The position numbers and the translations under genes are program-made. Shown here piece by piece: positions 940-60,960 of a stretch of 64,000 nucleotides of DNA. Positions within the stretch are counted from its first letter, which is position 1. Every line of letters begins with the position of its first letter. The DNA is from Enterobacteria phage CHB7: sequence record MK562504.1; one strand, given 5' to 3'. Under the pieces are notes generated by a model, which saw nothing but the letters and a program-made list of their open reading frames with translations, searched no databases and was not told where the DNA came from.

Positions 940-3639
940 ATGGAAAACGTAGATTTTGAAAACTTGCACTTGGTAGGTGATACCGAAACTGATGGGTTAC
1001 TCCTTGAGTTCACAAAAGCACACGTAATGGCATTTGCAGATTACAAAGATGACAGTGACGAACCTGCTGTGTGGGTCTTCACCGATGAACCTATTCTTGG
1101 TCACAAGTGTACCAAATACATCAAAGGTGGTCTTCGTGAAGGTGTAGAGTTTGCTCTTAAGGCAAAGCGTCTCTGCATTCATAACGGTCTGGGTTATGAC
1201 TGGTGGGTGTTCAATCACATTGCGCCGGACTTATGGAACTTTGACAATCCGAAGTGCAAACCTTGGGGAGACTTCTTTCAGGATTCTCTTATCCAGTCTC
1301 GTGTTCAGTGGATGGATAGACCTACACCGAAAGGTTACAAAGGTGCTCATGGTTTGGCTGCATGGGGTGCTCGTGTTGGTGTTCGTAAACCAGAGATTGA
1401 AGAGTGGGGCGTTTGGAATGCTGACATTCTGAACCGTGTTGTTGAGGATATTCGAATCAACGCCAAAACTAAACGTGCTCTTGATAACGAATACCTGAAG
1501 TTGAAGAAGTGTGGTGTAGACACTTACGAAACATACATGCGAGCTAAAGAAACATCTTTTTGGATGAGTCAGCAAGCTATCAACGGTTGGAAAGCTGATA
1601 TTGAACTTATGCAGTTCCATGTCAAAGAACTTGACAGAATGACTGATGAATTAGCTGCTGAAGTTGAGCCTCATCTACCACCGACTATTAAGACGAAAGG
1701 CAAAGTCACTGGCGAAGAGTTTGCAAAAGCTTGGAACGAGTATGTGGAGACATTTGGTGAAGCAGATGGTTTGAAGCGTATCACTAAGTATCCAAAAACC
1801 AAGTTCCGTCAGCAGGTTCGTAATGGTGAGATGCAGACTTACGCTATCAAACCTTTTGGTAAACCGACTACCAAGATTTTCAACATTGAGAAGCGTAACT
1901 GCTACACTCCAACTAACACGGTTACGGGAGAAGAGTACAAAGAAGGTTTTGTGGCAATGAAAGATGCTCGTGCAGTTTGTAACGAGTTGAATGCTGTGAT
2001 TGATAAGAAGTGTAAAGACTGGAAACCAGTTAAAACTGTGAAGACTGTGAAGTACTACAACAATCACGTAGTAAATCACTTTGAACTTGAGTCAAGCCGT
2101 TACACAGGTTTGATTGATGCGCCTTATACACCAATTGAGTTTGAAGTTTCACGCATGACTCAGGTTGCGGTTGTGAAGGATTATCTGAAAACTCTTGGCT
2201 GGATTCCTGATGACTGGAACTACAAGAAAGATTCTGATGGTCGTCCGGTGAAGGTTTGTCGCTTCAAAGACAACAAGAAGATGATTCGTAAACATCCGAA
2301 ATGGCAAGAGATGGTAGACCGTTGTGGGTTGAACTATGTTGAACATGAAGGTGTACAGTACATCGAACACAACTGGTCTGTGAAGAAGTACACAGATTTG
2401 CTTGAGCCTTGCTTGATTCGTACTTCACCGAAACTGACTGAATCATCTTACGATACGATTGAAGGGGAACTTGGACAGAAGATTGCGAAGTACTATACTT
2501 TGATGCACCGACGCAGAACTATCGAAAACTCAAAGGATGACGAAAAGGGTTGGTTAAACCAGATTCGTCCAGATGGTCGTTTGAGTGCTGGTGCAATGGT
2601 GTTTGGTACTTCAACTGGACGTATGACACAATATGGAATTGTGAACGTACCTTCTGGAGCTGCTGTTTACGGTGAACCGATGAGGGCAGTCTGGATTTGT
2701 GAAGAAGGAACAAACGTAGTTTCCGTTGATATGAACTCTGCACAGCTTGTTCTACTGTGTAACTTTATGGGTGATAAGGAGTTCACCAAAGCGGTAACTC
2801 AGGGTAAAGAAGAGATTGAGTTTATCCGTCAGGAAGACGGTAGATACTACTGTAAACACTTTGACGAATACCTGAATCCAGAAGTTGATAAGTATCTGCG
2901 TTACGACTCTGAAAATGACTTGTACGTAGTCTACTCAGGTACTGATGCTCATACACTGAACAGTATCTACTTCAGCTTGAACGAAGAACAAGATATCTTG
3001 ACTTGTCGTATGACTCAGGATGAAAATCTTCTTCACGAAATCAGTAAGGGTCGTAAGAAAGCTAAGAATGGTATCTATGCGTTACTGTTCGGTGCTGGTG
3101 ATGAGAAGTTTGCTAAGACGATTAAAGCTGCGACTACTCAGGAAGGTGCATTAACTAAACAGACTTACTTTGTGCGTTTGCCGAAGATTAAGAAACTGTT
3201 AGATGACTTGGAAGCTGACTTTAAAGCAACTAAGAAAGCACTCGAAGAAGTATTTGGTAAGACTGCTGCAATTGCTAAAGGTGGTTTTGTCAAGGTTGCT
3301 GGAGCATGGTTGTGGTGTAAGTCTCCACACAAACTGTTGAACTACTTGCTGATGGGTTCAGAGGCACAAGTTCAGAATGAAGCAATCAACCTTGCATGTC
3401 GTCGTATGATTGATGAAGGTTTGATGAAGTTGAACGGTCGTAAGCCAGCTATCGGTGCTCGTTTACTCTGTGCATATCACGATGAAACAAGTTGGGAATG
3501 TCCAGAGAGCATGACAGCAGAAGTTAAGGCTGTGACTGACTGGTACTACGGTCAAGCTTCTAAGAACTTAGGGCTTCGTAAAGAAACTCTGGTAACAGGG
3601 ACTGGTAAAGTTGGTAAGTCTTGGTATGAGGTGCATTGA
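940..3639 (+). CDS. DNA polymerase, family A (T7 gp5-like) with 3'-5' exonuclease domain
   Basis: 899 aa; exo motif DTETDGL near N-terminus; segments HNGLGYDW, AHGLAAWGARVG and APYTPIEF resemble T7 DNA polymerase; RBS GAGAGGGAG before ATG at 940. Confidence 0.9.
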   Translation: MENVDFENLHLVGDTETDGLLLEFTKAHVMAFADYKDDSDEPAVWVFTDEPILGHKCTKYIKGGLREGVEFALKAKRLCIHNGLGYDWWVFNHIAPDLWNFDNPKCKPWGDFFQDSLIQSRVQWMDRPTPKGYKGAHGLAAWGARVGVRKPEIEEWGVWNADILNRVVEDIRINAKTKRALDNEYLKLKKCGVDTYETYMRAKETSFWMSQQAINGWKADIELMQFHVKELDRMTDELAAEVEPHLPPTIKTKGKVTGEEFAKAWNEYVETFGEADGLKRITKYPKTKFRQQVRNGEMQTYAIKPFGKPTTKIFNIEKRNCYTPTNTVTGEEYKEGFVAMKDARAVCNELNAVIDKKCKDWKPVKTVKTVKYYNNHVVNHFELESSRYTGLIDAPYTPIEFEVSRMTQVAVVKDYLKTLGWIPDDWNYKKDSDGRPVKVCRFKDNKKMIRKHPKWQEMVDRCGLNYVEHEGVQYIEHNWSVKKYTDLLEPCLIRTSPKLTESSYDTIEGELGQKIAKYYTLMHRRRTIENSKDDEKGWLNQIRPDGRLSAGAMVFGTSTGRMTQYGIVNVPSGAAVYGEPMRAVWICEEGTNVVSVDMNSAQLVLLCNFMGDKEFTKAVTQGKEEIEFIRQEDGRYYCKHFDEYLNPEVDKYLRYDSENDLYVVYSGTDAHTLNSIYFSLNEEQDILTCRMTQDENLLHEISKGRKKAKNGIYALLFGAGDEKFAKTIKAATTQEGALTKQTYFVRLPKIKKLLDDLEADFKATKKALEEVFGKTAAIAKGGFVKVAGAWLWCKSPHKLLNYLLMGSEAQVQNEAINLACRRMIDEGLMKLNGRKPAIGARLLCAYHDETSWECPESMTAEVKAVTDWYYGQASKNLGLRKETLVTGTGKVGKSWYEVH

Positions 3640-4151
3640 TGCAAGATTGTGGTTTTACTCATGAGCAATTAAAATCATGGATTCACTACGACCCCTTAAC
3701 AGGGGTCTTAACTTGGATTGGTAGACCTCCTAACAGTGGTCGGGTGGTTATAGGCAGTCAAGCTGGGTCAATCAAAAGGACAAAATCTGGTGTGTATCTT
3801 CATACACAGATACTAGGTTACAGGACAGGGAATCACCGTATTGCTTGGTTCTGGATGACTGGAAAATGGCCTGATAAACATATTGACCATAAGGATGGAG
3901 ATGGTCTAAACAATGCTTGGGAGAATCTTAGAGAAGCCACGAAAGAGCAGAACATGGCTAACAGGAGACAACCTAGAACATCAAAGAGTTTAAAAGGCAC
4001 AAGTAGAAGCAAATCTGGAAAGTGGATTGCACAGATTAACCATAATGGAAAGACTAACCATATTGGCACATACATGACCGAGCAAGAAGCCCACGAAGCT
4101 TACTGTGAAGCTGCTATAAAACTCCACGGAGATTTTGCAAAACTTAGTTGA
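3639..4151 (+). CDS. HNH homing endonuclease with AP2-like DNA-binding domain
   Basis: IDHKDGDGLNNAWENLREATKEQN HNH core; C-terminal SGKWIAQINHNGKTNHIGTY AP2-like segment; ATG overlaps polymerase stop (TGATG). Confidence 0.8.
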   Translation: MQDCGFTHEQLKSWIHYDPLTGVLTWIGRPPNSGRVVIGSQAGSIKRTKSGVYLHTQILGYRTGNHRIAWFWMTGKWPDKHIDHKDGDGLNNAWENLREATKEQNMANRRQPRTSKSLKGTSRSKSGKWIAQINHNGKTNHIGTYMTEQEAHEAYCEAAIKLHGDFAKLS

Positions 4152-6830: not shown

Positions 6831-7211
6831 ATGAAAAAGATTATGATAGGTGTCATTCTGGCAACTCTGAGTTTTGGTGCATCAGCTATGAAGATGCCTG
6901 AAGCAGACTTTAGCAAGGTCTCTATGGAGGCTTGTCAGATTGTTCGTAAAGTCGTAACAGATGCTGGAGAGTTGACTAAACCGTTATCTTCTCCAACCGT
7001 CATGGAAATGTCTGACCGTATCACTGATTACAATTATCGTGTGATGGCAGACTACTACGAAGCTGTTTCTGATGCTATGGTCACTCAGGATGTTGACTTG
7101 CTTGATGACAAAGACATTGAGAAGGTTGAAGATACTAAACGTGATATGATGGATGAAACGTTTAAAGGTGTTCATTACTTTGTTGAAAAGCGCACTTGTG
7201 TAGGTCTATGA
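6831..7211 (+). CDS. secreted/periplasmic hypothetical protein
   Basis: N-terminal MKKIMIGVILATLSFGASA signal-peptide-like; RBS AGGAGAAGAAA. Confidence 0.55.
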   Translation: MKKIMIGVILATLSFGASAMKMPEADFSKVSMEACQIVRKVVTDAGELTKPLSSPTVMEMSDRITDYNYRVMADYYEAVSDAMVTQDVDLLDDKDIEKVEDTKRDMMDETFKGVHYFVEKRTCVGL

Positions 7212-9883: not shown

Positions 9884-10780
9884 ATGTCACAAGCAGATGT
9901 AAGCTACAAAAATATTCTGAACCACGTTTTAACAGTTGGCGAGCAGCGTAAAACCCGAACTGGTTCTGTAATTTCAACGTTCTCACCCCCAGAGTTTCGT
10001 TTTGATATGCGTACTGGTTTTCCTTTACTAACCTCTAAACAGGTTCTGACCAGACAAGTTATCGGAGAAGCTTTATGGTTCTTGAATGGTGAGAATAAAC
10101 TTGGTCATCTTCGCTATCGTACTTGGGGAGAAAATGATGGAGAACGTTGGACAATTTGGACAAATGACTTCGAGCGATGGCTTAAAACAACGTATGCAAG
10201 TGAGCAAGATTGGCTTGATGATGCAGGTGGACGAATCTACGGTGTACAGTGGAGAGCCTCAGAAGGTCATGGTGGCGTTACAGTTGACCAGCTAGATAAT
10301 CTGATTACCAAGATGAAAAAGTCTCCTACAGACCGTTACATGCTGGTTAATGCTTGGAATGCTGCTGATATATCAGCTAATGCAATGGCTTTACCACCTT
10401 GTCATGTGCTTTTCCAGATTTACATCTCAAATACTGGTGAAGTTGATTTAAAATGGTATCAACGTTCTGTAGACAGCTTCTTAGGTTTACCATTTAACAT
10501 TGCATCTTATGGTTTTATCTTGGAAGTGCTTTGTAAGATGACTGGATACACACCTCGTTATCTGATTGGTACTTTTGGTGATACTCAGATTTATCAAAAC
10601 CATATGAATCAGGTATTCCAGCTTTTAGGTAATGAAGAGTTTCCTGCACCAAAGTTTGAGATTATCCAAGATTTGAAATGTCTGGATGACCTCAAACATA
10701 TGACTGCAAGTGACTTTATCGGTGGTTTCAAAGACTATCGACATGCTGGGAAGATTGAAGCTCCTTTGTCAGTAGGTTGA
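9884..10780 (+). CDS. thymidylate synthase
   Basis: Active-site ALPPCH and DSFLGLPFNIASY motifs; directly downstream of DHFR. Confidence 0.9.
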   Translation: MSQADVSYKNILNHVLTVGEQRKTRTGSVISTFSPPEFRFDMRTGFPLLTSKQVLTRQVIGEALWFLNGENKLGHLRYRTWGENDGERWTIWTNDFERWLKTTYASEQDWLDDAGGRIYGVQWRASEGHGGVTVDQLDNLITKMKKSPTDRYMLVNAWNAADISANAMALPPCHVLFQIYISNTGEVDLKWYQRSVDSFLGLPFNIASYGFILEVLCKMTGYTPRYLIGTFGDTQIYQNHMNQVFQLLGNEEFPAPKFEIIQDLKCLDDLKHMTASDFIGGFKDYRHAGKIEAPLSVG

Positions 10781-10786
10781 TAGATA

Positions 10787-10830
10787 CAAAAAAGGCTCCT
10801 TTTTACGGGAGCCTTAAACTTATTTTTTCT
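10787..10830. terminator. bidirectional rho-independent terminator
   Basis: Hairpin AGGCTCC (10793-10799) / GGAGCCT (10808-10814) flanked by A-run upstream and T-run downstream; sits between convergent genes. Confidence 0.6.
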
Positions 10831-11194
10831 TAGCGTTTTGAGTGTTCTGTTCAGTGATTGCTTGCAAAGCTGATACAGACTGTGCTAGGTTATTAACACT
10901 GTCAGAGAATTTATCAAGGGTTTTGGTCAACTTGGCGTTTTCACCCTTTACGTTCTCTAGCTGAACTTTCTGGTTCTCCATGCCTAATTGCAGGAGTTTC
11001 ATGTCAGACTGCAAATCACGAATAGCTGAATAGTTGCTTTTGTTGTAACTATCAAGCTGTTGTAACTTTGTCGAAACGGAAACTTCCTGCTTCCCACTAG
11101 ACACCTGCATTGTAGTGTACATACCAATTACACTGAAGATACCCACAACAATTGCACCAATGTTATTTTTGAAAGCATCCTCTAACCACTTCAT
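10820..11194 (-). CDS. membrane-anchored coiled-coil protein
   Basis: N-terminal hydrophobic helix IGAIVVGIFSVIGMY followed by heptad-rich region. Confidence 0.5.
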   Translation of the reverse strand: MKWLEDAFKNNIGAIVVGIFSVIGMYTTMQVSSGKQEVSVSTKLQQLDSYNKSNYSAIRDLQSDMKLLQLGMENQKVQLENVKGENAKLTKTLDKFSDSVNNLAQSVSALQAITEQNTQNAKKK

Positions 11195-11388
11195 TCTTTC
11201 TCCCCTTTAAAGGCTTTTTCCAAGTTGTTAACAAATTCATCATCAATAGGCGTATCTGTCTTACTCGCAAGGTATCTTGCAAGTCTGAAGAAGGCTTTCT
11301 CAATCATGTATTCACTCAGAAGGGAAAGTAGAAGTTTCCAGAGGAAGCTACCCAAGTTTTTTAAGAGGATTGCTAGGATAGTCGGCAT
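11191..11388 (-). CDS. small membrane protein
   Basis: 65 aa; N-terminal hydrophobic helix; overlaps downstream gene start. Confidence 0.4.
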   Translation of the reverse strand: MPTILAILLKNLGSFLWKLLLSLLSEYMIEKAFFRLARYLASKTDTPIDDEFVNNLEKAFKGEKE

Positions 11389-11467
11389 TATGTCACCTCA
11401 TCAGCCAAGATGGTGAGAATACCTATGAAAATATTAACACCATCTTAACATTTAGTCAACAAATTGA

Positions 11468-13813
11468 TTATGCCGTTCTAACCCAAGCCATCAATCTGAT
11501 AAACATATTTACAACACTGAATGCAGAACCAGAACCAGTACCACCAGTGTTACCACTCAATGTGTGGCTGTGAGCACCAATACCAACTGTATGCGTGTGA
11601 GCACCAGCGGAAGCAGCAGTACCACTAACTGAGTGGGTGTGAGCACCAGCGGAACCAGTGTTGATGTTCCCATAGTTGGTTTTAGAACCAGCACCAACAT
11701 AACCAGTATATTCACCATTCCACGTCTGGTGAGCAGCCATACCATGAACGTGAGCACCAGCGGAAGCAGCAGTACCTGAAACACCATGTGTGTGAGCACC
11801 AGTGCTGTTGGAGGTCTTAGTACCATAGTCGAAGCTTGATGTTGTCGCTGAGAAGCTATGGGTGTGTGAAGGGATGTTGCCTACAGCTAATGTCACAGTA
11901 TCTGCACCACCAGTAGTTTTAACATCTGAACCGTTTGCTGCACCGATTCTGACAGTTCTACCAACACCTTCATTTAGATACGTCCAAGTTAATCCCGGAA
12001 GGGTAGTGTTAGGGTTCTGGTTAGTTGCAAACCATGTTACAATACCAACTGGATAAATCTTCTTAAGGTCTGTAGAGTTAGTGATAGCAGCAGAAATTTT
12101 AGCATCAGTTTCTGCCTTAGTGTATGCACCTACATCTCCAGCAGATGGTTTATCAGTTGAGGTGTAAATCTTAGACCAATCTACCTCGAACCCAAAAGCG
12201 TCTCTTGAAGACCTGTAGAAGATACCACCATTTTTGTAGTTGAAACGCAACTGTGCAGAAGGGCATGAACCCTGTGCTTGGTAGAGTTGCAGAATCATCT
12301 GTGAACCACCACCAACAAGGACATTATACAGCCCTGACTTAGCATTCCAAGGAACTGCGTTAAAATCTGTTGAAGTATATGCACCAGTTGCACCAGCTAA
12401 CATAAATCTTGAGTTAGCAGCAGACTGTGTAAAGTATCGTGCATCAAAGTTACCCCAATCAGAAGGTTGAACCTGTCCAGTAATTGCCAAAGTTTTGTTT
12501 GCAGTGATTGTTGAGCCAAGTGTTAGCGTTGAACCATCCACATAGTTTGACAAAACAAGGTTGTTATTGTTGGCACTTCCATTACCCACATACCATCTCA
12601 TGGTTCCATCGGAATCAACACCTCTCAAGTAAAGAGCGGCCTGTTTTGTTGCATTTTTCAGCATCAAAGCTTCATTATCAGATGTGATATTTTGCTTTAC
12701 GCTGAAGTTGTTTGTTGCGTTAACTCTTGCCAAACTCGATAGTGTTCCGGCAGGAATAAATCTTGAATCAATATTAGTCCAGTCACTAGGTTGAACCTGT
12801 CCAGTAATTGCAAGACTCTTGTTAACTCTTACCATATTGTCAAGTAATACGTAGGTATCGTTTGAGATATTTGTTAAGACAACTGAGTTGCTACCATCTG
12901 CATAGTTACCTACAGCCCACTTCATAGAAGCATCTGTGTTCTGACCTTCAATATAAAGTGCTTTACCACTTGTCAAGTTCTTAAGAGTTAATCTTGCACC
13001 GTCACCAAGTAACGTTGTAGTCCCTCTGAAGGTGTTGTTTCCAGTAATCGTGTTAGCTGCTGCCAACTGAACAAATCTTTGGTCTGCTGCATCACGAGTA
13101 TAGAATCTTGCATCGAAGTTTGCAAAGTCTGAAGGAACAACCTGTCCAGTAACTTGAAGCTGTTTGTTAATCCCTACAGAGCCAGTGCCAAGAACAATAT
13201 TAGTGTTCTGTTTGGTGTTTGCAATAGTAACATCAGAACCAGAACTCAAGTTACCAATTGTGAATCTTACTGCATTTGCTGTATCACGACCTTCATAATA
13301 CAATGCAGCAGCCGCAGTGTTCTTTAAAGTTAAACCTGCATTGTCTGTCTGAAAAATCTGACTTGCTGTGAAGGTGTTTTGAGTTCCCTTGATAGCAAAC
13401 CTTGCATCATTCTCATCATTAGTTCTCATCCCAAGTTCATTAGGGGATGGCTTATTCAGAGTATGGTAAACTGTTGCATTTCTTGAAGCATCTGCAATAG
13501 TCAGTTTAAGACCATTTGCATTAAGCTTGAAAGTTTTTGCAGTGTCACCGAAGACAATTTCAGAGTTACCTGTTGGGTCAAGTAAATCTTTTCCTCCATA
13601 GGTAAGCTTGACAATCCCTAAATTACCTGTCATGGTTCCACCAACTAATTGCAGAAATCTTTCCAGCTTGAAAGATGCAAGGAAATCTGCATAAGTCATT
13701 CTACGGTCTTCATCACCTAACATCTCAGTTCTTTTCTTAACTCTGACATGTAATAGGTCATCAGAACGAATTTCGTTAATCGAGTTCAGTTCACTCAATT
13801 TAAATTCTGCCAT
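11468..13813 (-). CDS. tail fibre protein with C-terminal tail-collar-like HxH repeat domain
   Basis: 781 aa; C-terminal repeats of GAHTHSVSGTAASAGAHTH and terminal GSGSAF...MAWVRTA; RBS AAGAGG. Confidence 0.8.
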   Translation of the reverse strand: MAEFKLSELNSINEIRSDDLLHVRVKKRTEMLGDEDRRMTYADFLASFKLERFLQLVGGTMTGNLGIVKLTYGGKDLLDPTGNSEIVFGDTAKTFKLNANGLKLTIADASRNATVYHTLNKPSPNELGMRTNDENDARFAIKGTQNTFTASQIFQTDNAGLTLKNTAAAALYYEGRDTANAVRFTIGNLSSGSDVTIANTKQNTNIVLGTGSVGINKQLQVTGQVVPSDFANFDARFYTRDAADQRFVQLAAANTITGNNTFRGTTTLLGDGARLTLKNLTSGKALYIEGQNTDASMKWAVGNYADGSNSVVLTNISNDTYVLLDNMVRVNKSLAITGQVQPSDWTNIDSRFIPAGTLSSLARVNATNNFSVKQNITSDNEALMLKNATKQAALYLRGVDSDGTMRWYVGNGSANNNNLVLSNYVDGSTLTLGSTITANKTLAITGQVQPSDWGNFDARYFTQSAANSRFMLAGATGAYTSTDFNAVPWNAKSGLYNVLVGGGSQMILQLYQAQGSCPSAQLRFNYKNGGIFYRSSRDAFGFEVDWSKIYTSTDKPSAGDVGAYTKAETDAKISAAITNSTDLKKIYPVGIVTWFATNQNPNTTLPGLTWTYLNEGVGRTVRIGAANGSDVKTTGGADTVTLAVGNIPSHTHSFSATTSSFDYGTKTSNSTGAHTHGVSGTAASAGAHVHGMAAHQTWNGEYTGYVGAGSKTNYGNINTGSAGAHTHSVSGTAASAGAHTHTVGIGAHSHTLSGNTGGTGSGSAFSVVNMFIRLMAWVRTA

Positions 13814-24407: not shown

Positions 24408-25760
24408 TTATTCGTAAGCCACTGTACCTTTCAAGTCAACATCCAAGATAGCACCTGCTAAGATACCTGCGAAGGTAACATCTTTCAGGATACGAGCTTT
24501 CTTGTCTGCCAAAGCAACTTGAGAGGCTTTAGGAACATTAACTGTGTAAGATGACAGGAAGTTTCTGTTAACTGCTCTTTGCAGAGAGGTTTCAATGACC
24601 TGACGAATACGGGTAATACCTGTATCATCATAAGTAATCTTACCACCCTTCTGATTAATTAGCAAGTCTCTCAGAGAAGTTTTCAAGTCAGATTCTAGCC
24701 AGTCAACACCACGGATGATATCAATCCATTCACCACCAGAAGTGACACCTCTACGTACAACTGGAACACCACCATCAAGGTCGATGAAGTTGCAGTGACG
24801 TACATCCAAAGCGGATTTCTGAATGCTTGTCAGAGGTCTCTGGTTAGCTGGCTGAAGAGACGCTTCAACACCAGTCAACTGAGCATTACCCCAAGCAATT
24901 GAACCTGCATCATACGGAGCACCGTAAGCGATGTAAGCCATTTCTGGGTAATCATAGGTAGCAGTGTGATGCCACAAGCAGACTGTACGAGTGTACATGC
25001 TCTTGGCAAGCTGTGCAGGAACATCAGAAGCTGATTCTAGTTCGGTTCCTTGCAGGGCAGCTACATCTGCGTTTGCTGTGAAGAAAATCTTCTTACGAGC
25101 CTGAATTTCTGAAGCCATTGCCAAGATGAACTGAGAAGTTCTGTCTTCAGCAGAGATGAAGTACCAATCTGTAGAGTACGTCTCAATAGCAGCCAAAGCA
25201 CTTGCAGCAGTGTCAGAAGTTGTAGCAGCGATTGATACAGAGCTTGTAGTTGAGGTAACTTTTACAAAGTCATTGTCACCAGCTTTTGTAACAATCATGG
25301 TTGCGGAGCTACCAGTACCAGTTACGTTGATAGTAACATCATCTTTGATTGTTGGGTCAGCTTCAATCTGGTCTTTAAACTGCGTCAGAACAATCAGAGC
25401 AGTGTCATCAGCTTGTGCAGTGTATTGGTATGGCTGAGAAACGCCACCACCTACAGCAATCGTCAGAGAGTAATCTGTACTTTCAGCTACTTCATCAGGG
25501 ATTGACACTGTGTACTGCATAGCACGTCTACCAATATATAGCTGAGTTACTTTTGGAGTTTGGCTCCATAACTGTCTTGCAGCTTTATAAGCAGCAGAGT
25601 TTTCATCGAAATCTTCAGCAACTTCAGTCAGAGAGGTATAGCCACGAACCCTTTCTTCAAAGTTGTCAGTTGACGCTAAGAATAATGGTAGACCAAAACC
25701 TTCTCTCGTAGTTCCTGCGGTGTTCAATGTAATATCTACATTAACAATTGGATTCCACAT
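24408..25760 (-). CDS. tail sheath protein
   Basis: 450 aa upstream of tube/chaperone/tape-measure; positional and size inference. Confidence 0.6.
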   Translation of the reverse strand: MWNPIVNVDITLNTAGTTREGFGLPLFLASTDNFEERVRGYTSLTEVAEDFDENSAAYKAARQLWSQTPKVTQLYIGRRAMQYTVSIPDEVAESTDYSLTIAVGGGVSQPYQYTAQADDTALIVLTQFKDQIEADPTIKDDVTINVTGTGSSATMIVTKAGDNDFVKVTSTTSSVSIAATTSDTAASALAAIETYSTDWYFISAEDRTSQFILAMASEIQARKKIFFTANADVAALQGTELESASDVPAQLAKSMYTRTVCLWHHTATYDYPEMAYIAYGAPYDAGSIAWGNAQLTGVEASLQPANQRPLTSIQKSALDVRHCNFIDLDGGVPVVRRGVTSGGEWIDIIRGVDWLESDLKTSLRDLLINQKGGKITYDDTGITRIRQVIETSLQRAVNRNFLSSYTVNVPKASQVALADKKARILKDVTFAGILAGAILDVDLKGTVAYE

Positions 25761-26360
25761 TTATTTTACCCCTTTGGAGTCTACATCTAGATGGATAGTA
25801 TATTCTGGTGGCTCCTGTCCTTCCTCATAAACCAACTCACCATCAACGATAACGCGCTCAATAATACCACCACGTTCATCTTTCAAGACTGAGTTCATTA
25901 CAAGGGTTACAACAAGAGGTGCAGAATTTTCGAAATCTGTATTAAGATAAGTATAATCATTCGGGATAGCTCCAGTATCAAGCACCGTAGCACCTGTCTG
26001 TTCAAGCAATAAATCCCTTGTGGAACTCATCTCTAACCTTTGTTTTAGCTCCAGCATAATACTGTGAGCACCTTTACCATTTACAGTAATTAGTACGGGA
26101 ATCTGAAAAGCAATTCGATAGCAAACTACGTCATCTTCCACGAATTTATCAAGTAACCAACCATAAGGTGTTGTAGCATCTTGGCAGTATACTGTAATGA
26201 ATGGCTGGTCAGGTTTTAAACCTTTATCGTTAGAGTTGTCAGAGGGGTAAGCCCTAATAACGTTTGGTCTGTTATTCTTATCACGCGCTAATCGGTGACC
26301 AATAACATCTACCAAAGTTCTAACAATCCCTTTCTCAAGTTCTGCTGTTTCTAACTGCAT
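25761..26360 (-). CDS. neck/tail completion protein
   Basis: 199 aa; position between head and tail modules. Confidence 0.45.
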   Translation of the reverse strand: MQLETAELEKGIVRTLVDVIGHRLARDKNNRPNVIRAYPSDNSNDKGLKPDQPFITVYCQDATTPYGWLLDKFVEDDVVCYRIAFQIPVLITVNGKGAHSIMLELKQRLEMSSTRDLLLEQTGATVLDTGAIPNDYTYLNTDFENSAPLVVTLVMNSVLKDERGGIIERVIVDGELVYEEGQEPPEYTIHLDVDSKGVK

Positions 26361-36307: not shown

Positions 36308-36865
36308 TTACTTTCTTAGTGGATGAATAAAGAATGCCAACATAATTCTTTCCCTTGAAAATGCTCTTTCTTCTGGGACAACACTTTTAAGTTTCCAACC
36401 AACATAAATTCTCCAGTAAAATTGTTTACCAAAGATTTTAATTGACGGGATAAAAGCGAATAAACCCCAAGCATTACTGTTCCACATCAGGAGATAACCT
36501 GTCTGATTATCTTCAGGGTTAGAACTTACGTTGATATTACCTTTCCACTTAGTAACATCTTTTACATCTCTTCCTAATACATGGTAAGAGAAGTTATAAG
36601 CTTTGTTTCTCCAGAGCCATCCAACTCTCTGCATATAAACACCGAGCTTACCAATCTTTCGAATCTTAGCCCATCGTTCAACGTGACCTTTGTCACCATC
36701 AATTGGGTTGTCATAAGTTTCCATCCATCTGAATCCAAAAGGTAAGTGACCTTTCTTCTCACTGTAGAATGGAACCACAAATGGTGCTAAGATTACTGCT
36801 AAGATTGCTGCAAATGGCTCTAGCAAAGCTAGGAAAATCCATGAAGCATACTTCAAATATCTCAT
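36308..36865 (-). CDS. membrane protein, hypothetical
   Basis: ATG 36863-36865 with AGAGG RBS; N-terminal hydrophobic segment; track ORF extends upstream from TTG into tRNA-Arg. Confidence 0.5.
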   Translation of the reverse strand: MRYLKYASWIFLALLEPFAAILAVILAPFVVPFYSEKKGHLPFGFRWMETYDNPIDGDKGHVERWAKIRKIGKLGVYMQRVGWLWRNKAYNFSYHVLGRDVKDVTKWKGNINVSSNPEDNQTGYLLMWNSNAWGLFAFIPSIKIFGKQFYWRIYVGWKLKSVVPEERAFSRERIMLAFFIHPLRK

Positions 36866-36885
36866 TTTAAATAGCCTCTTTAAAT

Positions 36886-36962
36886 TGGTGCAGAATAAGG
36901 GATTCGAACCCCTAACAAACAACTTCGTAGGTTGCTGCTCTATCCGTTTGAACTAATTCTGC
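36886..36962 (-). tRNA. tRNA-Arg (ACG)
   Basis: Loop CUACGAA; perfect 7 bp acceptor GCAGAAT/ATTCTGC. Confidence 0.65.
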
Positions 36963-39403: not shown

Positions 39404-39479
39404 TGGTAGGAGTGGAGGGATTCGAACCCTTCGCCTGTCAGATTAAAAGTCTGCCGCATCACCATTCTGCTACACTCCC
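39404..39479 (-). tRNA. tRNA-Lys (UUU)
   Basis: Loop CUUUUAA; A73. Confidence 0.6.
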
Positions 39480-39735
39480 ATTGAATCATCTTTGCAGTAA
39501 CCTACGCAAACCTTGCTAAAGGGTTTGTAGAGTCATTTCCTATTAAGCTAATCTAGAATCATGCTAAGGAAATTCATCGGCACTCATGGGACGACATTTA
39601 GCTCCATAAGTCACTGCAAAGAGGATTACCAGACCGTTGTTTATCTTAAGTGCTCCCATTACACCAACACGCCGTAACGTGTGAAGGAATCGAACCTTCG
39701 CCTTTTCTTTACCAGAGAAATAGATTGTTTTATAC

Positions 39736-39765
39736 TTGCTGTAAACGGTCTTCTGTAAATTTGTT
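39736..39765. repeat. inter-tRNA spacer repeat (TGCTGTAAACGGTCTTCTG family), copy 1
   Basis: Same about 20 nt word recurs at 40281-40306 and 40440-40466; CCAGACC word recurs near 39639, 39787, 40238, 40395. Confidence 0.6.
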
Positions 39766-39906
39766 GAGCCAGACCAAGTTTTAAATTTTTCAAAATTAAA
39801 TTGGCTTGAAATTTTTTAAGTTGGCTTGCTGAATTTGGTCTTCTGCTCCTTTAAAGAACACTCGTAAGAACTCTTTAAGGGAGGGGCTAAAAAGCCCTCT
39901 CAAATT

Positions 39907-39984
39907 TGGCGGTTACGAAGGGATTCGAACCCTCATCATCTCCCGTGACAGGGGAGTATTTTAACCAGATTAAACTACATAACC
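39907..39984 (-). tRNA. tRNA-Asp (GUC)
   Basis: Perfect stem CTCCC/GGGAG, loop CUGUCAC; G73. Confidence 0.7.
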
Positions 39985-39990
39985 TTTATT

Positions 39991-40078
39991 TGGTGCGCCG
40001 TGAAGGAGTCGAACCTACCGAGTCATAATGACAAGTGATTTACAGTCACCACCGCTTCCATCTACGGGATAACGACGC
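39991..40078 (-). tRNA. tRNA-Tyr (GUA), long variable arm
   Basis: Loop CUGUAAA; 88 nt; A73. Confidence 0.6.
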
Positions 40079-40148
40079 ATTTTATTCCATTCAGGCTAAG
40101 GACTTGCACCTTACAAATCGGTGAGCATTACGCTTCTCTCCCAAATCT

Positions 40149-40225
40149 TGGCGGTGAGTTAGGGATTCGAACCCTATGCCATTCGGTTAACAGCCGACCG
40201 CACATGCCTTATGTGCTTCCTCACC
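40149..40225 (-). tRNA. tRNA-Asn (GUU)
   Basis: Loop CUGUUAA; G73; perfect T stem. Confidence 0.65.
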
Positions 40226-40306
40226 ATGTTTAGTATTGCCAGACCGTATCTTTTCATTTTTCCTATAAAAATTTTTGAGATTGCTGTAAACGGTCTTCTG
40301 CAAATT

Positions 40307-40383
40307 TGGAGGCGGGTGCAGGAGTCGAACCTGCCGATACCATGCTAATGAGACATGTGAGACGCCCTTTCTCTATACCCGCG
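40307..40383 (-). tRNA. tRNA with CAU anticodon, unpaired 1-72 (C-C)
   Basis: Loop CUCAUUA; first acceptor pair is a C-C mismatch; U73. Confidence 0.5.
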
Positions 40384-40466
40384 AACTTTTATGACCAGAC
40401 CAAACTTTTAAGTTTTCTATGCGCGAAAAGTAAAGTTGTTTGCTGTACTTGGTCTTCTGTCAAATT

Positions 40467-40541
40467 TGGAGTCGTAGACGGGATTCGAACCCGCGAGCAA
40501 CTGATTGAAGGTCAGGTGGCTAACCATTTGCCTTCTACGAC
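40467..40541 (-). tRNA. tRNA-Glu (UUC), tentative
   Basis: Stem CTGA/TCAG, loop CCUUCAA (C at position 33 is unusual); perfect acceptor. Confidence 0.45.
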
Positions 40542-40548
40542 ATTAATT

Positions 40549-40625
40549 TGGTCTCCGTTGAAGGGATTGAACCTTCGACCTCACCGCCCCAAACGGCGCA
40601 CTCTACCAAACTGAGCTAAACGGAG
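40549..40625 (-). tRNA. tRNA-Pro (UGG)
   Basis: Loop UUUGGGG; C1-G72; A73; perfect acceptor. Confidence 0.7.
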
Positions 40626-40744
40626 ATAATCTTTTCAAACTCTATGTAACCACTTTAACATTATTTTTTAGTGGTTGTCAAGAACTTTTTTAAAATATTT
40701 TTCAGTATCTTAGAAAAACTCTCGATTTCGTTTCTATGTAGAAC

Positions 40745-40773
40745 ATATTAAAGGGTATCGAGCAGATTGTCAA
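40745..40773 (-). promoter_or_regulatory. sigma70 consensus-like promoter (TTGACA-17-TAATAT) reading into the tRNA cluster
   Basis: Minus-sense TTGACA (40768-40773) and TAATAT (40745-40750), 17 bp spacer inside a GGGTAT/ATACCC palindrome. Confidence 0.6.
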
Positions 40774-40791
40774 TACCCTTTTTAAAACTTT

Positions 40792-42207
40792 TTACCAGAT
40801 GTAACGGTCAATCATTACTGCTTTGAGCATTACGCTGATTGGGTCAAACTTCTCACCACCAAGCAGAGCTTTTAAAGTGGCTGGAGAGAACCCTGATACC
40901 ATTGCTACCCCATTATCCTTAACAGACACTTCGCAAGTACCATTACGGTTTGCTAAGTACCAGAATACCAGTTGTGGCATTTCGTATCCAGCTTTTTCAT
41001 ACTTACTGCGAATTGCTTCGAAGTTTGTATGGCCATCTGCACCGTCAACCTGATTGAACTCCATATCAGAGAAGATAATAAGCTTACTTGGCATTGCTGC
41101 CTGAGTCAAGCCATTTCTTACACCGATTTCAAGAATACGGTCAAATGCTGCTTGCAGGTTTGTTGAACCATACTCAACCTTGTTCATTACCTGACGCATA
41201 CGAGTCTGCAAATCACCACTCAGAGTAATAAAGTGAGGTCTTGTGGAGTAAACCATTAACTCATCTTTAAAGCACCCTGTATTGCGTTCTGAGACGTATA
41301 ACGCCAAAGACAGGCCAATATCAAGAGCAGTTACAGAACCAAATGTCTGCCAAGTCATAGACGCTGATACATCTGACATACACAGAATGTTTTCACCTTC
41401 TGCCATCCAGTTTGGTAATGCTTTCCACTGTTCGTTTGCAACACTTGCTTTACCATGATTAACGGACTTCAGAATATCGTATGGGTACACAGCACCAGCA
41501 TTAATCTTGGCCTCACCTTTGGATAAAGCTTCAACGTAAGCTGCATAACGTTCACCGTCTTTCTTGCTGAACAGCTTTTGATAACGTGCAGCAGCCAGTG
41601 AAGGAATCTTGCTGTAGTCAATCTCACCAAAGTTATTTGTAGAGATTTTCTGTTCAACGGTATCAGACAAAGCTGATAACAGTGTACGGTATTCTTTCTC
41701 ACTCAGGCTTGCAAACTTACAGAAACGTTTTACAAACTGTTTGTGTCGTGGTTTTACTCGTGGTAACCACTTAGCCGCTAAACCTGCTGTATCAGGGTCT
41801 AACAAGGCTGCTTCTAAATGCTTGAAAGCATCTGTCTCATAACGAGTACCTACGAAGATTTTGAAGTCATCGAAACGACCTAATTCAGAAATCTTATCCA
41901 TGATACGAAGAACTTGGAAAGAATCCAGAATGTTATCTTCGATTGCTTGTAAGAGGACAGTTCGGAAAGCTTTACGCTCACCCATACCTTCTCGTACATC
42001 TCGCATATGCAGTAAAATACGAACTGCTACATCAACATCCTCACGCAAAGCTTTGTAGAACAAGTCTGGGAGAATCTCTACATTGCCACGGCTTGAGCCA
42101 GCAGCTTTATAGAAGTCTACCAAGGCAGACATTGATGATGTATGGTTAACAGCACCATTTTCAGTTCGCCCTGCATGGAGGTGCGAATGTTTAAATAAAT
42201 CGCTCAT
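40792..42207 (-). CDS. vWA-domain protein with MIDAS motif (DUF2828/TROVE-like?)
   Basis: 471 aa; DxSxS MIDAS motif in LCMSDVSASM; N-terminal RTENGAV segment; purine-rich RBS. Confidence 0.6.
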   Translation of the reverse strand: MSDLFKHSHLHAGRTENGAVNHTSSMSALVDFYKAAGSSRGNVEILPDLFYKALREDVDVAVRILLHMRDVREGMGERKAFRTVLLQAIEDNILDSFQVLRIMDKISELGRFDDFKIFVGTRYETDAFKHLEAALLDPDTAGLAAKWLPRVKPRHKQFVKRFCKFASLSEKEYRTLLSALSDTVEQKISTNNFGEIDYSKIPSLAAARYQKLFSKKDGERYAAYVEALSKGEAKINAGAVYPYDILKSVNHGKASVANEQWKALPNWMAEGENILCMSDVSASMTWQTFGSVTALDIGLSLALYVSERNTGCFKDELMVYSTRPHFITLSGDLQTRMRQVMNKVEYGSTNLQAAFDRILEIGVRNGLTQAAMPSKLIIFSDMEFNQVDGADGHTNFEAIRSKYEKAGYEMPQLVFWYLANRNGTCEVSVKDNGVAMVSGFSPATLKALLGGEKFDPISVMLKAVMIDRYIW

Positions 42208-45167: not shown

Positions 45168-45632
45168 ATGCAACTCTCTGATAAGGGGCTTGCAGCAATT
45201 AAGTTTTTTGAAGGGCTTCGTCTAGAAGCCTATAGAGACTCTGCTGGAATCCCAACAATCGGGTACGGTACAATCCGTATTGGTGGCAAGCCTGTTACGA
45301 TGGGTATGAAGATTACTGCTTCACAAGCTGAACAGTATCTGCTTGCAGATGTTGAAAGCTATGTTGGGGCGGTAAACAAAGCTATCAAGGTTCCAACCTC
45401 TCAAAATGAGTTTGATGCTCTCGTTGTAGAAACTTACAACATTGGTATCACAGCCATGAGAGACTCAACTTTCATCAAGCGTCATAATGCTGGTAACAAA
45501 GCTGGCTGTGCTGAAGCTATGCAGTGGTGGAACAAGGTAACGGTCAATGGTAAGAAAGAAGTTTCTAAGGGTCTGCAAAACAGACGTCGCTTAGAAGCAA
45601 AAATTTATCTTGACGCTGTTTATCCGAAATAG
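45168..45632 (+). CDS. endolysin, T4-type lysozyme (GH24)
   Basis: KFFEGLRLEAYRDSAGIPTIGYG segment (catalytic E..D..T pattern); strong RBS AGGAGG. Confidence 0.85.
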   Translation: MQLSDKGLAAIKFFEGLRLEAYRDSAGIPTIGYGTIRIGGKPVTMGMKITASQAEQYLLADVESYVGAVNKAIKVPTSQNEFDALVVETYNIGITAMRDSTFIKRHNAGNKAGCAEAMQWWNKVTVNGKKEVSKGLQNRRRLEAKIYLDAVYPK

Positions 45633-48454: not shown

Positions 48455-48672
48455 AAAAATTTACAACACTTGGTGAGTACTGGATGCTTGCTGCTACAGA
48501 ATCCTACAGGAAAGCCAAAAAGACTAAACAGTGTTATGGTAAGAAAGCGGAAGGTGATATTCTGTACTGCACTGTGCATGATGGGATGCCTCATGTTACA
48601 CCAAGAGGTAAAGCTTTCAAACGTCTGATGGATATTGAGTGGAATGCTCGTTTAGAGAGGGTAGTAAAATGA
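48451..48672 (+). CDS. hypothetical protein
   Basis: 73 aa ORF. Confidence 0.45.
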   Translation: MKKFTTLGEYWMLAATESYRKAKKTKQCYGKKAEGDILYCTVHDGMPHVTPRGKAFKRLMDIEWNARLERVVK

Positions 48673-49175
48673 TTTACGAAGATAGCCGTGATGTGATTTC
48701 TTTTCAGCAGTCTAACCATCATGTATCTCTGAAGATTACTAAGCCAAATGGTGAAGCAGGTGTTATCTCCCACTTCGGAGGTGATAATTGGTTTGGTACA
48801 GGGTGCTTTGAAGGTTACAGCAAAGAATATCTGAAAGCATTCTACCGAGATTTTATTAATGACTACAACGAACTTGTTCAAGCAAAGAACGATTGCACAA
48901 GCAGTGAGTATAAAGCCAGAGGTTGGGCTGGAACTATCCTGATGCTTGGCATTTTCCTTCTGATGATTTGTGTAATCTCCTTTATGGGTTTTTACAACCA
49001 AGAATTAACCCTTAATCAAACTGAGAAGAAACTTGGTGAACTCTGGTTCTTGTATGTACTTCCAATTGCTGGTATGATTGCTGCCTATTGGAGAATGAAG
49101 GTTCATAAGAAACGACTTGTGGACGCTGAGAATAAATTTGAAGAGGTAAGTAAAGAATGCAACCTAAGATTTTAG
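48669..49175 (+). CDS. membrane protein (two predicted TM helices)
   Basis: Hydrophobic segments GWAGTILMLGIFLLMICVISFMGFY and LWFLYVLPIAGMIAAYW; ATG 48669. Confidence 0.5.
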   Translation: MIYEDSRDVISFQQSNHHVSLKITKPNGEAGVISHFGGDNWFGTGCFEGYSKEYLKAFYRDFINDYNELVQAKNDCTSSEYKARGWAGTILMLGIFLLMICVISFMGFYNQELTLNQTEKKLGELWFLYVLPIAGMIAAYWRMKVHKKRLVDAENKFEEVSKECNLRF

Positions 49176-53596: not shown

Positions 53597-53692
53597 ATTC
53601 TCCAGTTTAGGATTTTTGTTTAATGGGGAAGTTTCCCTCCCCGTTGATAAGTACTTTACTTGTTTTGATTTGCCTTTGCAAGCTTTTTATTG
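53597..53692. repeat. about 95 bp near-identical dispersed repeat (type A cassette + flank), copy 1
   Basis: Near-identical to 57052-57147; includes the 3' end of array gene 3. Confidence 0.7.
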
Positions 53693-53793
53693 AAAAAATA
53701 ATCTTGAATCTCACTTGCTATCAGCAGACCAAAAGGAATAACCACTGATACAATCATGCCACACAGAATAGGGTTTTTAATTACTTCCATCAT
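53656..53793 (-). CDS. array gene 3, small membrane peptide (45 aa)
   Basis: ATG with cassette RBS; hydrophobic ILCGMIVSVVIPFGLLIA; below track length cut-off. Confidence 0.4.
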   Translation of the reverse strand: MMEVIKNPILCGMIVSVVIPFGLLIASEIQDYFFNKKLAKANQNK

Positions 53794-57051: not shown

Positions 57052-57147
57052 ATTCTCCAGTTTAGGATTTTTGTTTAGTGGGGAAGTTTCCCTCCCCGTT
57101 GATAAGTACTTTACTTGTTTTGATTTGCCTTTGCAAGCTTATTTTTA
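57052..57147. repeat. about 95 bp near-identical dispersed repeat (type A cassette + flank), copy 2
   Basis: Matches 53597-53692, including a remnant of the array gene 3 3' end. Confidence 0.7.
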
Positions 57148-57474
57148 AGAATTTTTTCTTTTGTTTATTTCTTGTGCAACAACTGGATAATAGTCTGTTA
57201 AATCAGCCACTTGCAATGACTCTAACAGTACATTATAATCATTGATTAGTTCAAAATCACCAGATAAAACATCATTGATTTGGTATGTTTTAGCCTTAAA
57301 TCTGAAGCTCATCTCTAAACGTTGCAATTGTGTACCATCTAAACGCTCTAAAAAGCCCCTGACAAGGTTTATTTTAACTTCCTTAGTGGTTATCTCATTT
57401 ACTTTGTTTAGCGCCTTATAAGCCTTGTAAAGCGCTACAATTGAGACCAGCAAAGCAACACCAGAGATTAACAT
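57145..57474 (-). CDS. array gene 12, membrane-anchored hypothetical
   Basis: N-terminal MLISGVALLVSIVALY hydrophobic helix. Confidence 0.5.
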   Translation of the reverse strand: MLISGVALLVSIVALYKAYKALNKVNEITTKEVKINLVRGFLERLDGTQLQRLEMSFRFKAKTYQINDVLSGDFELINDYNVLLESLQVADLTDYYPVVAQEINKRKNS

Positions 57475-60183: not shown

Positions 60184-60453
60184 CTACTTCCTCGTTTTGA
60201 GAACTGCCATAATTTCTTTGGTATCTTCTAAGAACCATGTGTAGTGATTCTCTTTGATTTCTGGATGAGTGTCAATCTTTAATTTGCAATCTCTTCCAGT
60301 ATCTTTCAACTGCGTTGTGATACCCTTCATAAAGATATGACACATCACATCATCCATAACCATCGGCATAAAGTCAATTCGCATGTAAGTATCTTTTGGT
60401 CTTGGAAGAAGTAAATAACCTTCTGTATAGAACAGTTCTGTCTCTTGACTCAT
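60184..60453 (-). CDS. hypothetical protein
   Basis: 89 aa ORF. Confidence 0.45.
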   Translation of the reverse strand: MSQETELFYTEGYLLLPRPKDTYMRIDFMPMVMDDVMCHIFMKGITTQLKDTGRDCKLKIDTHPEIKENHYTWFLEDTKEIMAVLKTRK

Positions 60454-60719
60454 TGCTGCTTATTCCCTAACAAAATCATATCAATCAAATTATTGGCTTT
60501 CATCGTACATTGATAGTACCCATCACGATAAAATTCAAGGGCTTGTGACAAGTCTGTGCCTGTATTACCCTTGACAACATAGCGTGCTTCTTCTTGAGTG
60601 TACTTATCACTTTCACTTACTTGGGAGTTTTTGAACGTAGAGTTCACTTTGTTCATTGAACACCCTGACATAAGTATCAGTAGCACAAATGTTATAAAAC
60701 TCTGGCTTAGTCTTTTCAT
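60450..60719 (-). CDS. lipoprotein (possible o-spanin)
   Basis: Signal peptide with lipobox LMSGC; AAGAGG RBS; start lies inside the upstream membrane-protein gene in a different frame. Confidence 0.5.
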   Translation of the reverse strand: MKRLSQSFITFVLLILMSGCSMNKVNSTFKNSQVSESDKYTQEEARYVVKGNTGTDLSQALEFYRDGYYQCTMKANNLIDMILLGNKQQ

Positions 60720-60960
60720 ATGTCAATACCTCTTTTGTGTGTTTGTTTTTAGCAAGCACATCTTTCAAATCATTTTTGTAATTGGAGCTAAGATTTGCTA
60801 AACCTTCTTGGTAAGCATCCTTAGCAACGCTTATAAGCTTCTGGTTAGTCAACTCTGTCTGAGTAACTTGGTAATCCTTGTAAGAATAACCTCCCCAGAC
60901 ACCTACACCAATCAGAAAAACAACTATGAAAGCTGCTTGACAGAACTCTTTAAATGTCAT
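60613..60960 (-). CDS. membrane-anchored periplasmic protein (possible i-spanin)
   Basis: N-terminal TM helix AAFIVVFLIGVGVWGG; strong AGGAGA RBS. Confidence 0.5.
   Translation of the reverse strand: MTFKEFCQAAFIVVFLIGVGVWGGYSYKDYQVTQTELTNQKLISVAKDAYQEGLANLSSNYKNDLKDVLAKNKHTKEVLTYEKTKPEFYNICATDTYVRVFNEQSELYVQKLPSK

Follow-up and report, generated by a model that had tools for sequence, protein, structure and literature searches.

A P18-family gene and its membrane/coiled-coil neighbor as a putative lysis cassette in Enterobacteria phage CHB7

Felix O1-type phages are widely used for typing, biocontrol and therapy of Salmonella and Escherichia coli; their holin has never been identified experimentally, and the literature is divided on whether it can be named. 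The same question is raised by a locus in Enterobacteria phage CHB7 (MK562504.1), of which we analyzed a stretch of 64,000 nucleotides (nt), referred to here as the window: what do the two small overlapping genes that follow the tail-fiber genes encode? A preliminary description of this DNA had proposed two membrane proteins, either a holin and an antiholin or fiber-assembly factors. We lean towards reading the two open reading frames (ORFs) as a lysis cassette, in which a P18-type accessory lysis factor is followed by the holin of the phage. By its matches, the window is the genome of an Ounavirinae myophage (Felix O1-like, Suspvirus-type), since the best of them are SUSP2, phiSUSP1, mistaenkt and EP1, followed by Mooglevirus and Felixounavirus.

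Two overlapping genes and their products

Both genes lie on the minus strand and overlap as first described. The gene for a 65-residue protein (11191-11388, read from 11388 to 11191, ATG...TGA) shares 4 nt with the gene for a 124-residue protein (10820-11194, read from 11194 to 10820, ATG...TAA), in the form of an ATGA stop/start overlap at 11191-11194 on the minus strand, which suggests that their translation is coupled. On the same strand, Shine-Dalgarno sequences are found 5 nt before each ATG, GAGGTG (11394-11399) for the 65-residue gene and GGGGAG (11200-11205), within the 3′ end of the 65-residue gene, for the 124-residue gene. Both ORFs are more than chance occurrences, since the exact 65-residue protein is present on at least 19 contigs and the pair is conserved across phage records. 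A segment of 801 bases spanning the pair had matches in about 258 phage records, with Escherichia phages SUSP2, phiSUSP1, mistaenkt and EP1 at the top (98% identity) and Mooglevirus and Felixounavirus at about 84% identity. About 260-296 phage records keep the pair itself, with identity falling to 26-50% in Kolesnikvirus and further distant relatives; every sampled Ounavirinae lineage has the pair, including one with a separate Caudo_TAP fiber chaperone.

Sequence comparison places the 65-residue protein solidly in the family of P18 (gp l), one of the lysis proteins P17 (gp k) and P18 of phage PM2 (Corticoviridae; Krupovic, Daugelavicius and Bamford, 2007, Mol Microbiol 64:1635). The precomputed Pfam label of the exact protein is PF26925 (Phage_PM2_Gpl), and all 79 of the 79 homologues found carry it; a Pfam scan whose library had no PF26925 model gave no match. 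In the PHROG scan the protein fell into phrog_402, a group with no functional label, with an E value of 7.6e-21. A profile built from 48 diverse family members scored 22.2 bits against PM2 gp l (51 amino acids; NC_000867, 9922-10077), and hhalign aligned the family with it at a probability of 91.9% (E 7e-7, 33% identity over 42 columns). When the model of the 65-residue protein was compared with viral structures by Foldseek, it matched its own family alone. Membership in this family is not new: P18 homologues in PaP3, Felix 01, RB49 and cyanophages were noted by Krupovic and Bamford in 2007 (PMC1950889).

Proteins of the PF26925 family are all-helical and 50-80 residues long; their N-terminal helix is hydrophobic or amphipathic, and an acidic T-x-T-x-x-D-D-E-F turn is conserved. 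The 65-residue protein was modeled by AlphaFold2 with a predicted local distance difference test score (pLDDT) of 85 and helices at residues 2-23, 26-43 and 47-64. Its invariant or near-invariant positions are E26, F33, F34, A37, T44, T46, D49 and D50; the T44-x-T46-x-x-D49-D50 motif is conserved in the family, the copy in PM2 P18 being degenerate. The net charge of the protein is 0. The single transmembrane (TM) helix attributed to it in the preliminary description is doubtful, because the N-terminal helix (residues 2-23) contains two conserved lysines and has a hydropathy of 1.57, just below the usual threshold of 1.6, about half of the family falls below that threshold (24 of 49 members exceed it) and the corresponding stretch of PM2 P18 is short (about 15 residues). 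The ORF itself stands.

In PM2, P17 perforates the cytoplasmic membrane and P18 assists in breaking up the outer membrane at lysis (PMC6356626). By analogy, we infer an outer-membrane role for the 65-residue protein. Since its one characterized relative acts on the outer membrane, the holin and antiholin roles first proposed for the pair need to be changed. Nothing points to such a pairing, and the antiholin idea was ruled out for want of any supporting feature.

The 124-residue protein is a bitopic membrane protein, a transmembrane domain (TMD) followed by a coiled coil. Topology prediction, the check proposed at the outset, gave it a single TMD: its one hydrophobic segment has a maximum at residues 12-30 (Kyte-Doolittle 1.62). 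AlphaFold2 predicted a helix at residues 2-32, a linker and one helix at 40-123, with a low mean pLDDT of 67. Residues 40-123 form one unbroken heptad register with 18 of the 24 a/d positions hydrophobic, a count reached by none of 2000 shuffles, and show a 3.5-residue periodicity (p = 0.002). Conserved in the family are a short N-terminus, the TMD and a C-terminal L-D-K-[FL]-[ST]-[DE]-S-[VI]-N-x-L motif. Kolesnikvirus, LPML1-like phages and further distant Ounavirinae-like phages encode homologues with 26-29% identity. The protein belongs to phrog_4038, again with no functional label, and its other matches in the Pfam, NCBIfam and PHROG scans were sub-threshold coiled-coil noise (DivIC, SMC, Rz-like). 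The family is narrow: a HMMER search run exhaustively over 1.84 billion representatives returned five relatives, all Ounavirinae-like, and no remote functional link.

Neighborhoods of P18-type genes and the lysis genes of CHB7

Outside the Ounavirinae, PF26925 genes are repeatedly found next to lysis genes. They lie directly 3′ of Phage_lysozyme in four contigs as well as a Shewanella prophage (L015/L016, L023, L024, L031 and L032), directly 3′ of Amidase_3 in L017, and directly 3′ of Glyco_hydro_108 (GH108) in L033, L035 and, by similarity, L008. In Krischvirus (RB49/JSE-like; L006, L019 and L020), the PF26925 gene sits between the gp37-type fiber gene and Phage_holin_T, and in two contigs (L032 and L034) it is immediately 5′ of the T7-type gp18 gene (small terminase). 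Most of the non-structural contexts thus adjoin an endolysin or holin T; in the CHB7 window only the candidate holin adjoins. Since a phage genome has roughly one endolysin per 50-100 genes, the repeated adjacency to endolysins is far beyond chance.

The pair also travels together outside the Ounavirinae. Contig L039 (IMG/VR UViG_3300014973_000064) has overlapping genes for an endolysin (M15/MepK-like, phrog_894), a P18-like protein (phrog_402), a 110-residue protein with a TMD and a coiled coil, and a 54-residue protein, followed by a terminator; the flanking genes differ from those of the Ounavirinae. The 110-residue protein, the sole clear membrane protein of this cassette, scored 23.4 bits against the profile of the 124-residue family, in a colinear alignment, and none of 1000 segment-preserving shuffles reached this value (maximum 14.1); the score was 16.5 bits when the most similar member was removed from the profile. 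It is this match, beside a P18-like gene, that argues for co-travel of the two genes.

Some of these neighborhoods have features of their own. The last gene of the L039 cassette (3499-3663) encodes the 54-residue protein, which is extremely rich in Lys and Arg, has neither TMD nor lipobox and occupies the usual spanin position; it might be a cationic outer-membrane-active peptide. Vibrio phage 1.067.O (L026, P22-like) has a GH108-like hydrolase and P18-like pair (25173-25906) in its early-left (erf/ssb) operon and a separate cluster of three proteins with TM helices beside the terminase (39407-40851). It may have two lysis-type modules, and, given this separate cluster, hydrolase and P18-like pairs are not always the main lysis cassette. 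In L036-L038, a conserved protein of 175-185 residues (phrog_3108) with the motif AIES...GPALGIWQM is encoded directly 5′ of the P18-like gene. Read by eye it resembled a soluble lytic transglycosylase (SLT); it had no Pfam, NCBIfam or PDB match and was not counted as a hydrolase, and it may represent an unrecognized murein hydrolase family. A holin-like, multi-TMD ORF of 75 residues comes after the P18-like gene in L038.

Of the standard lysis set, the window has a soluble lysozyme-type endolysin, which needs a holin (45168-45629, plus strand; tblastn with the Mijalis endolysin, 91% identity), and overlapping i-spanin (60960 to 60613) and o-spanin (60719 to 60450) genes on the minus strand (60450-60960; tblastn, 82% and 80% identity). 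The holin is the missing piece. The homologue of the 124-residue protein is labeled "putative holin" or "holin" in the GenBank relatives SUSP2, Mijalis, Mordin and Sf14, and the 65-residue homologues "hypothetical" or "putative cytoplasmic membrane protein". The "putative holin" call dates from 2015, when the protein was assigned to class III holins on the basis of its topology (PMC4392139); Moogle was likewise said to have "a putative holin", with lysis genes dispersed over the genome (PMC4319497). This old call now gains independent support, because the neighboring gene belongs to the P18 family and the same pair occurs in the endolysin cassette of L039.

These data support an association of the pair with lysis, since the 65-residue protein belongs to the P18 family and that family repeatedly adjoins endolysins or holin T. 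With moderate confidence, we propose that the two ORFs are a lysis cassette made up of a P18-type accessory lysis factor and then the phage's holin, the role of the latter being plausible from topology and gene neighborhood. The preliminary description was thus partly supported: its lysis idea was broadly right, mainly on evidence that was not available to it. The finding is real, and most of it was on record before, in databases or in print; the present analysis contributes a connection between the two genes and a cassette that crosses lineages.

How such a cassette would work can be sketched from PM2 and from the predicted topology. It would be a small, translationally coupled unit at the end of the fiber region, possibly with its own promoter and closed by a bidirectional terminator. 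The 65-residue protein would build up late in infection, in the cytoplasm or at the inner membrane, as in PM2. The 124-residue protein would enter the inner membrane by means of its single TMD, with a probable N-in/C-out topology, oligomerize via the TMD and the long coiled coil and, at a set time, make a lesion through which the soluble lysozyme could reach the murein. The spanins and the P18-like protein would then finish the envelope; if PM2 is a guide, the latter would act after the membrane lesion and murein breakdown by helping to destabilize the outer membrane, in an accessory or condition-dependent role beside the spanins.

A broader proposal, which we make only tentatively, is that P18-like and TMD/coiled-coil genes form a mobile two-gene lysis module of the Ounavirinae and of at least one unrelated lineage (L039). 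If so, the 124-residue family would be a new class of holin, built from a single TMD and a coiled coil of 12 heptads, and P18-like proteins would be widespread envelope disruptors of a non-spanin kind, working alongside spanins and not replacing them. Their role might depend on conditions, such as divalent cations that stiffen the outer membrane. The pair is a compact and directly testable two-gene unit, and it raises a modest question, namely what a P18-type factor does in phages that already have spanins.

Flanking signals and alternative readings

The surroundings of the pair are as the preliminary description had them, downstream of the fiber genes and upstream of a bidirectional terminator. 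The pair begins after a gap of 79 nt from the end of the long tail-fiber gene (11468-13813, read from 13813 to 11468, minus strand), which encodes 781 residues with three PF20744 gp37_trimer domains, PF12604 gp37_C and Gp10_C. This fiber terminates in repeated G-A-H-T-H / HxH motifs like those of the iron-binding needle in T4 gp37. The fiber gene has no neighboring chaperone gene of the gp38, gp57A or Caudo_TAP type; the distant relative L040 has Caudo_TAP there. On the other side, 5 nt past the end of the pair, an intrinsic terminator hairpin with T-runs on both strands (10792-10815) is common to the pair and to the convergent thymidylate synthase gene (9884-10780); its counterpart in Felix O1 is t79/t80 (PMC3185647).

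Between the fiber gene and the pair, we found a sigma-70-like promoter candidate on the minus strand, TTGACT-N17-TAATAT with a TG extension (11431-11459), overlapped by a perfect 9-bp inverted repeat, AAGATGGTG-N22-CACCATCTT (11407-11446). The repeat occurs once in the window and in none of 100 shuffles, and might serve as an operator, as a site of RNA processing or as a weak terminator. Both elements are kept in Suspvirus, Mooglevirus and Felixounavirus, and their place is taken by a terminator-like hairpin in LPML1-like and Kolesnikvirus genomes. On account of this conservation and of the hairpin in the distant relatives, the pair may be a transcription unit of its own. The number of promoter-like sites in the region did not exceed that in shuffles and sigma-70-type promoters occur throughout the genome, late regions included, so that the timing of expression of the pair cannot be inferred from promoters. 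Another promoter type, TTGACA-N17/18-TAAAGT, recurs on the minus strand before many small genes at 40-63 kb and near 300 (examples are 56273-56245, 53090-53062, 42276-42247, 40681-40652, 31179-31150 and 326-297), which suggests a phage-specific -10 variant. In the early region, a 126-residue ORF (6831-7211, plus strand) has a typical cleavable signal peptide (MKKIMIGVILATLSFGASA) and probably encodes a secreted or periplasmic phage protein.

Several points weigh against a cassette of P18-type factor and holin. No significant match links the 124-residue family to PM2 P17 (4.8 bits; hhalign probability 0.2%), to holin T (no Pfam match to PF11031 Phage_holin_T at E <= 0.1; about 1-2 bits between the family profile and JSE T) or to any Pfam or NCBIfam holin. 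A coiled coil as long and unbroken as that of the 124-residue protein is seen more typically in i-spanins than in known holins, and the net flank charges of five divergent members (N-terminal 0 to +1, C-terminal -1 to +1) leave its orientation unfixed. Topology alone fails to single it out, because the window has other small single-TMD ORFs that are options for the holin (36308-36922, 48639-49175, 53656-53793 and 57145-57474). The spanin pair means that the canonical outer-membrane step is already covered, and a two-component spanin would make an outer-membrane role of the P18-like protein redundant. Some PF26925 genes, moreover, lie in structural modules with no lysis gene nearby (SU10-like, Grimontviridae, Lahexavirus).

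Of the alternative holin candidates, 36308-36922 (minus strand, 204 residues) and 48639-49175 (plus strand, about 170 residues) each have one strong TMD. The product of the second is homologous to a "putative cytoplasmic membrane protein" of Mijalis (CPT_Mijalis100) and by position appears to correspond to Bas63 gp116, which was described as conditionally important on strain S17-1 in the PhageMaP study.

The literature adds to the points against. Felix O1 gp79, the homologue of the 124-residue protein, was given by Whichard et al. as one of five possible holins, and a crude reverse transcription PCR (RT-PCR) put the maximum of ORF79 at 5 min (PMC3185647); the latter is of little weight, because the same table puts the maximum of the capsid gene at 5 min. 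The 2019 announcement of Meda, by the same annotation group as the 2015 class III call, identified no holin (PMC6486253). An electron cryomicroscopy study of Sf14 labeled the homologue gp55 (FDI99_gp102) "Holin or lysozyme" and detected it by mass spectrometry in particles (PMC11821841). Our literature search found no experimental test of either protein in any Ounavirinae phage. The BASEL annotation of Bas63, in which the counterparts of the pair are bas63_0028/bas63_0029, names no holin.

Could the roles be swapped or split differently? The P18-like protein would then permeabilize the membrane like a holin, and the 124-residue protein would be a periplasm-spanning accessory, i-spanin-like or regulatory. 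We regard this as unlikely, and it deserves weighing since no further TMD protein is encoded near several endolysin and P18-like pairs (L015, L017, L008), and since the two T7-like contigs place the P18-like gene directly before gp18, in the position of holin 17.5 in T7. The 124-residue protein has an i-spanin-like architecture and weak Rz-like PHROG matches (E 0.003 and 0.038). Against such a split, the family's N-terminal helix is borderline as a TMD and too short in PM2 P18, the 124-residue gene is unaccompanied by an o-spanin-like lipoprotein ORF, and a canonical spanin pair is found elsewhere in the window. The family profile scored 2 bits against the phage's own i-spanin; no ORF with a lipobox was found inside or after the 124-residue gene, and the small ORFs near or inside it, considered as o-spanins, were ruled out on that ground. 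The Vibrio phage with a GH108 and P18-like pair has its separate TM-protein cluster by the terminase, and in PM2 it is the single-TMD P17, not P18, that permeabilizes the cytoplasmic membrane (PMC6356626).

That one or both proteins serve in tail-fiber assembly or are virion-associated, the second idea of the preliminary description, seems to us quite improbable. The pair does directly follow the fiber genes, the tip of the fiber is T4 gp37-like, and the T4 gp37 tip needs chaperones. Sf14 has no known Mu-type fiber chaperone, and PF26925 genes do occur within structural modules. Neither protein, however, had a Pfam or PHROG match to chaperone families (Caudo_TAP PF02413, T4 gp38/gp57A), a TM anchor is not known among fiber chaperones, and the association of PF26925 with endolysins has no fiber logic. 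The distant Ounavirinae-like contig L040, with the order fiber, Caudo_TAP chaperone, PF26925 gene, 128-residue homologue and convergent thymidylate synthase, sets the pair apart from fiber assembly, since it has the pair in addition to the chaperone gene. Localization in the virion, which was to count against a membrane-lesion role, has a weak link in its favor in the detection of Sf14 gp55; those particles were pelleted, not gradient-purified, and gp55 was not placed in any map (PMC11821841). The simplest explanation is contamination by membranes, whose debris is a likely source in a preparation that was merely pelleted. Neither gp78 nor gp79 was found in Felix O1 virions banded twice in CsCl (Whichard et al., PMC3185647).

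A low probability is also given to the idea that the pair is an autonomous membrane-protein cassette under its own sigma-70 promoter, serving for example superinfection exclusion, envelope remodeling or defense evasion. The promoter-like element and unique inverted repeat on its 5′ side, the terminator on its 3′ side and the hairpin that separates it from the fiber gene in LPML1-like and Kolesnikvirus genomes would all suit such a unit, as would an RT-PCR timing unlike that of the fiber gene in Felix O1 and the mostly non-essential membrane and lysis genes of Bas63 in PhageMaP. The functional data on the P18 family, however, concern lysis only, and exclusion genes would not be expected to occur repeatedly beside endolysins and holin T; the lack of enrichment of promoter-like sites over shuffles, and the presence of sigma-70-type promoters in late regions too, also count against it.

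Comparison with known lysis systems

The closest parallel to the proposed cassette is PM2. The 65-residue protein is a sequence homologue of P18, and in both phages a P18-type gene shares bases with a gene whose single-TMD product has a helical C-terminal tail (in PM2, the holin P17), and the pair closes the late/structural gene block. The order differs, however, being k-l in PM2 whereas the P18-like gene comes first and the TMD gene second in CHB7. The 124-residue protein is more than twice as long as P17 and has no detectable similarity to it, and the hydrophobic N-terminal helix is longer in the P18-like proteins of the Ounavirinae. PM2 also has no recognized endolysin or spanin (PMC1950889), whereas the CHB7 window has both.

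With the i-spanins of the lambda Rz type, the 124-residue protein shares an N-terminal TMD followed by a long helical coiled coil, as well as weak, sub-threshold PHROG matches. Unlike them, its gene has no embedded, overlapping or adjacent o-spanin lipoprotein ORF, and the genuine i-/o-spanin pair sits at 60450-60960. The phiKT gp28 "disruptin" is a small non-lipoprotein, strongly cationic, for which an attack on the outer membrane from the inside, once holin and endolysin have acted, has been proposed. It is set beside the P18-like proteins by description, for the kind of mechanism inferred for them, and homology is not claimed; unlike gp28, the 65-residue protein has no net charge and carries a conserved acidic motif.

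Finally, the position of the pair recalls T4 and its relatives. The C-terminal domain of holin T (class III; PF11031) is globular and periplasmic, whereas that of the 124-residue protein is a continuous coiled coil, in a protein that has no sequence similarity to T and is not a PF11031 member. In both cases, nevertheless, the gene of a single-TMD protein stands right behind the distal fiber gene, and in the RB49/JSE-like Krischvirus the PF26925 gene between gp37 and t matches the 65-residue gene in position.

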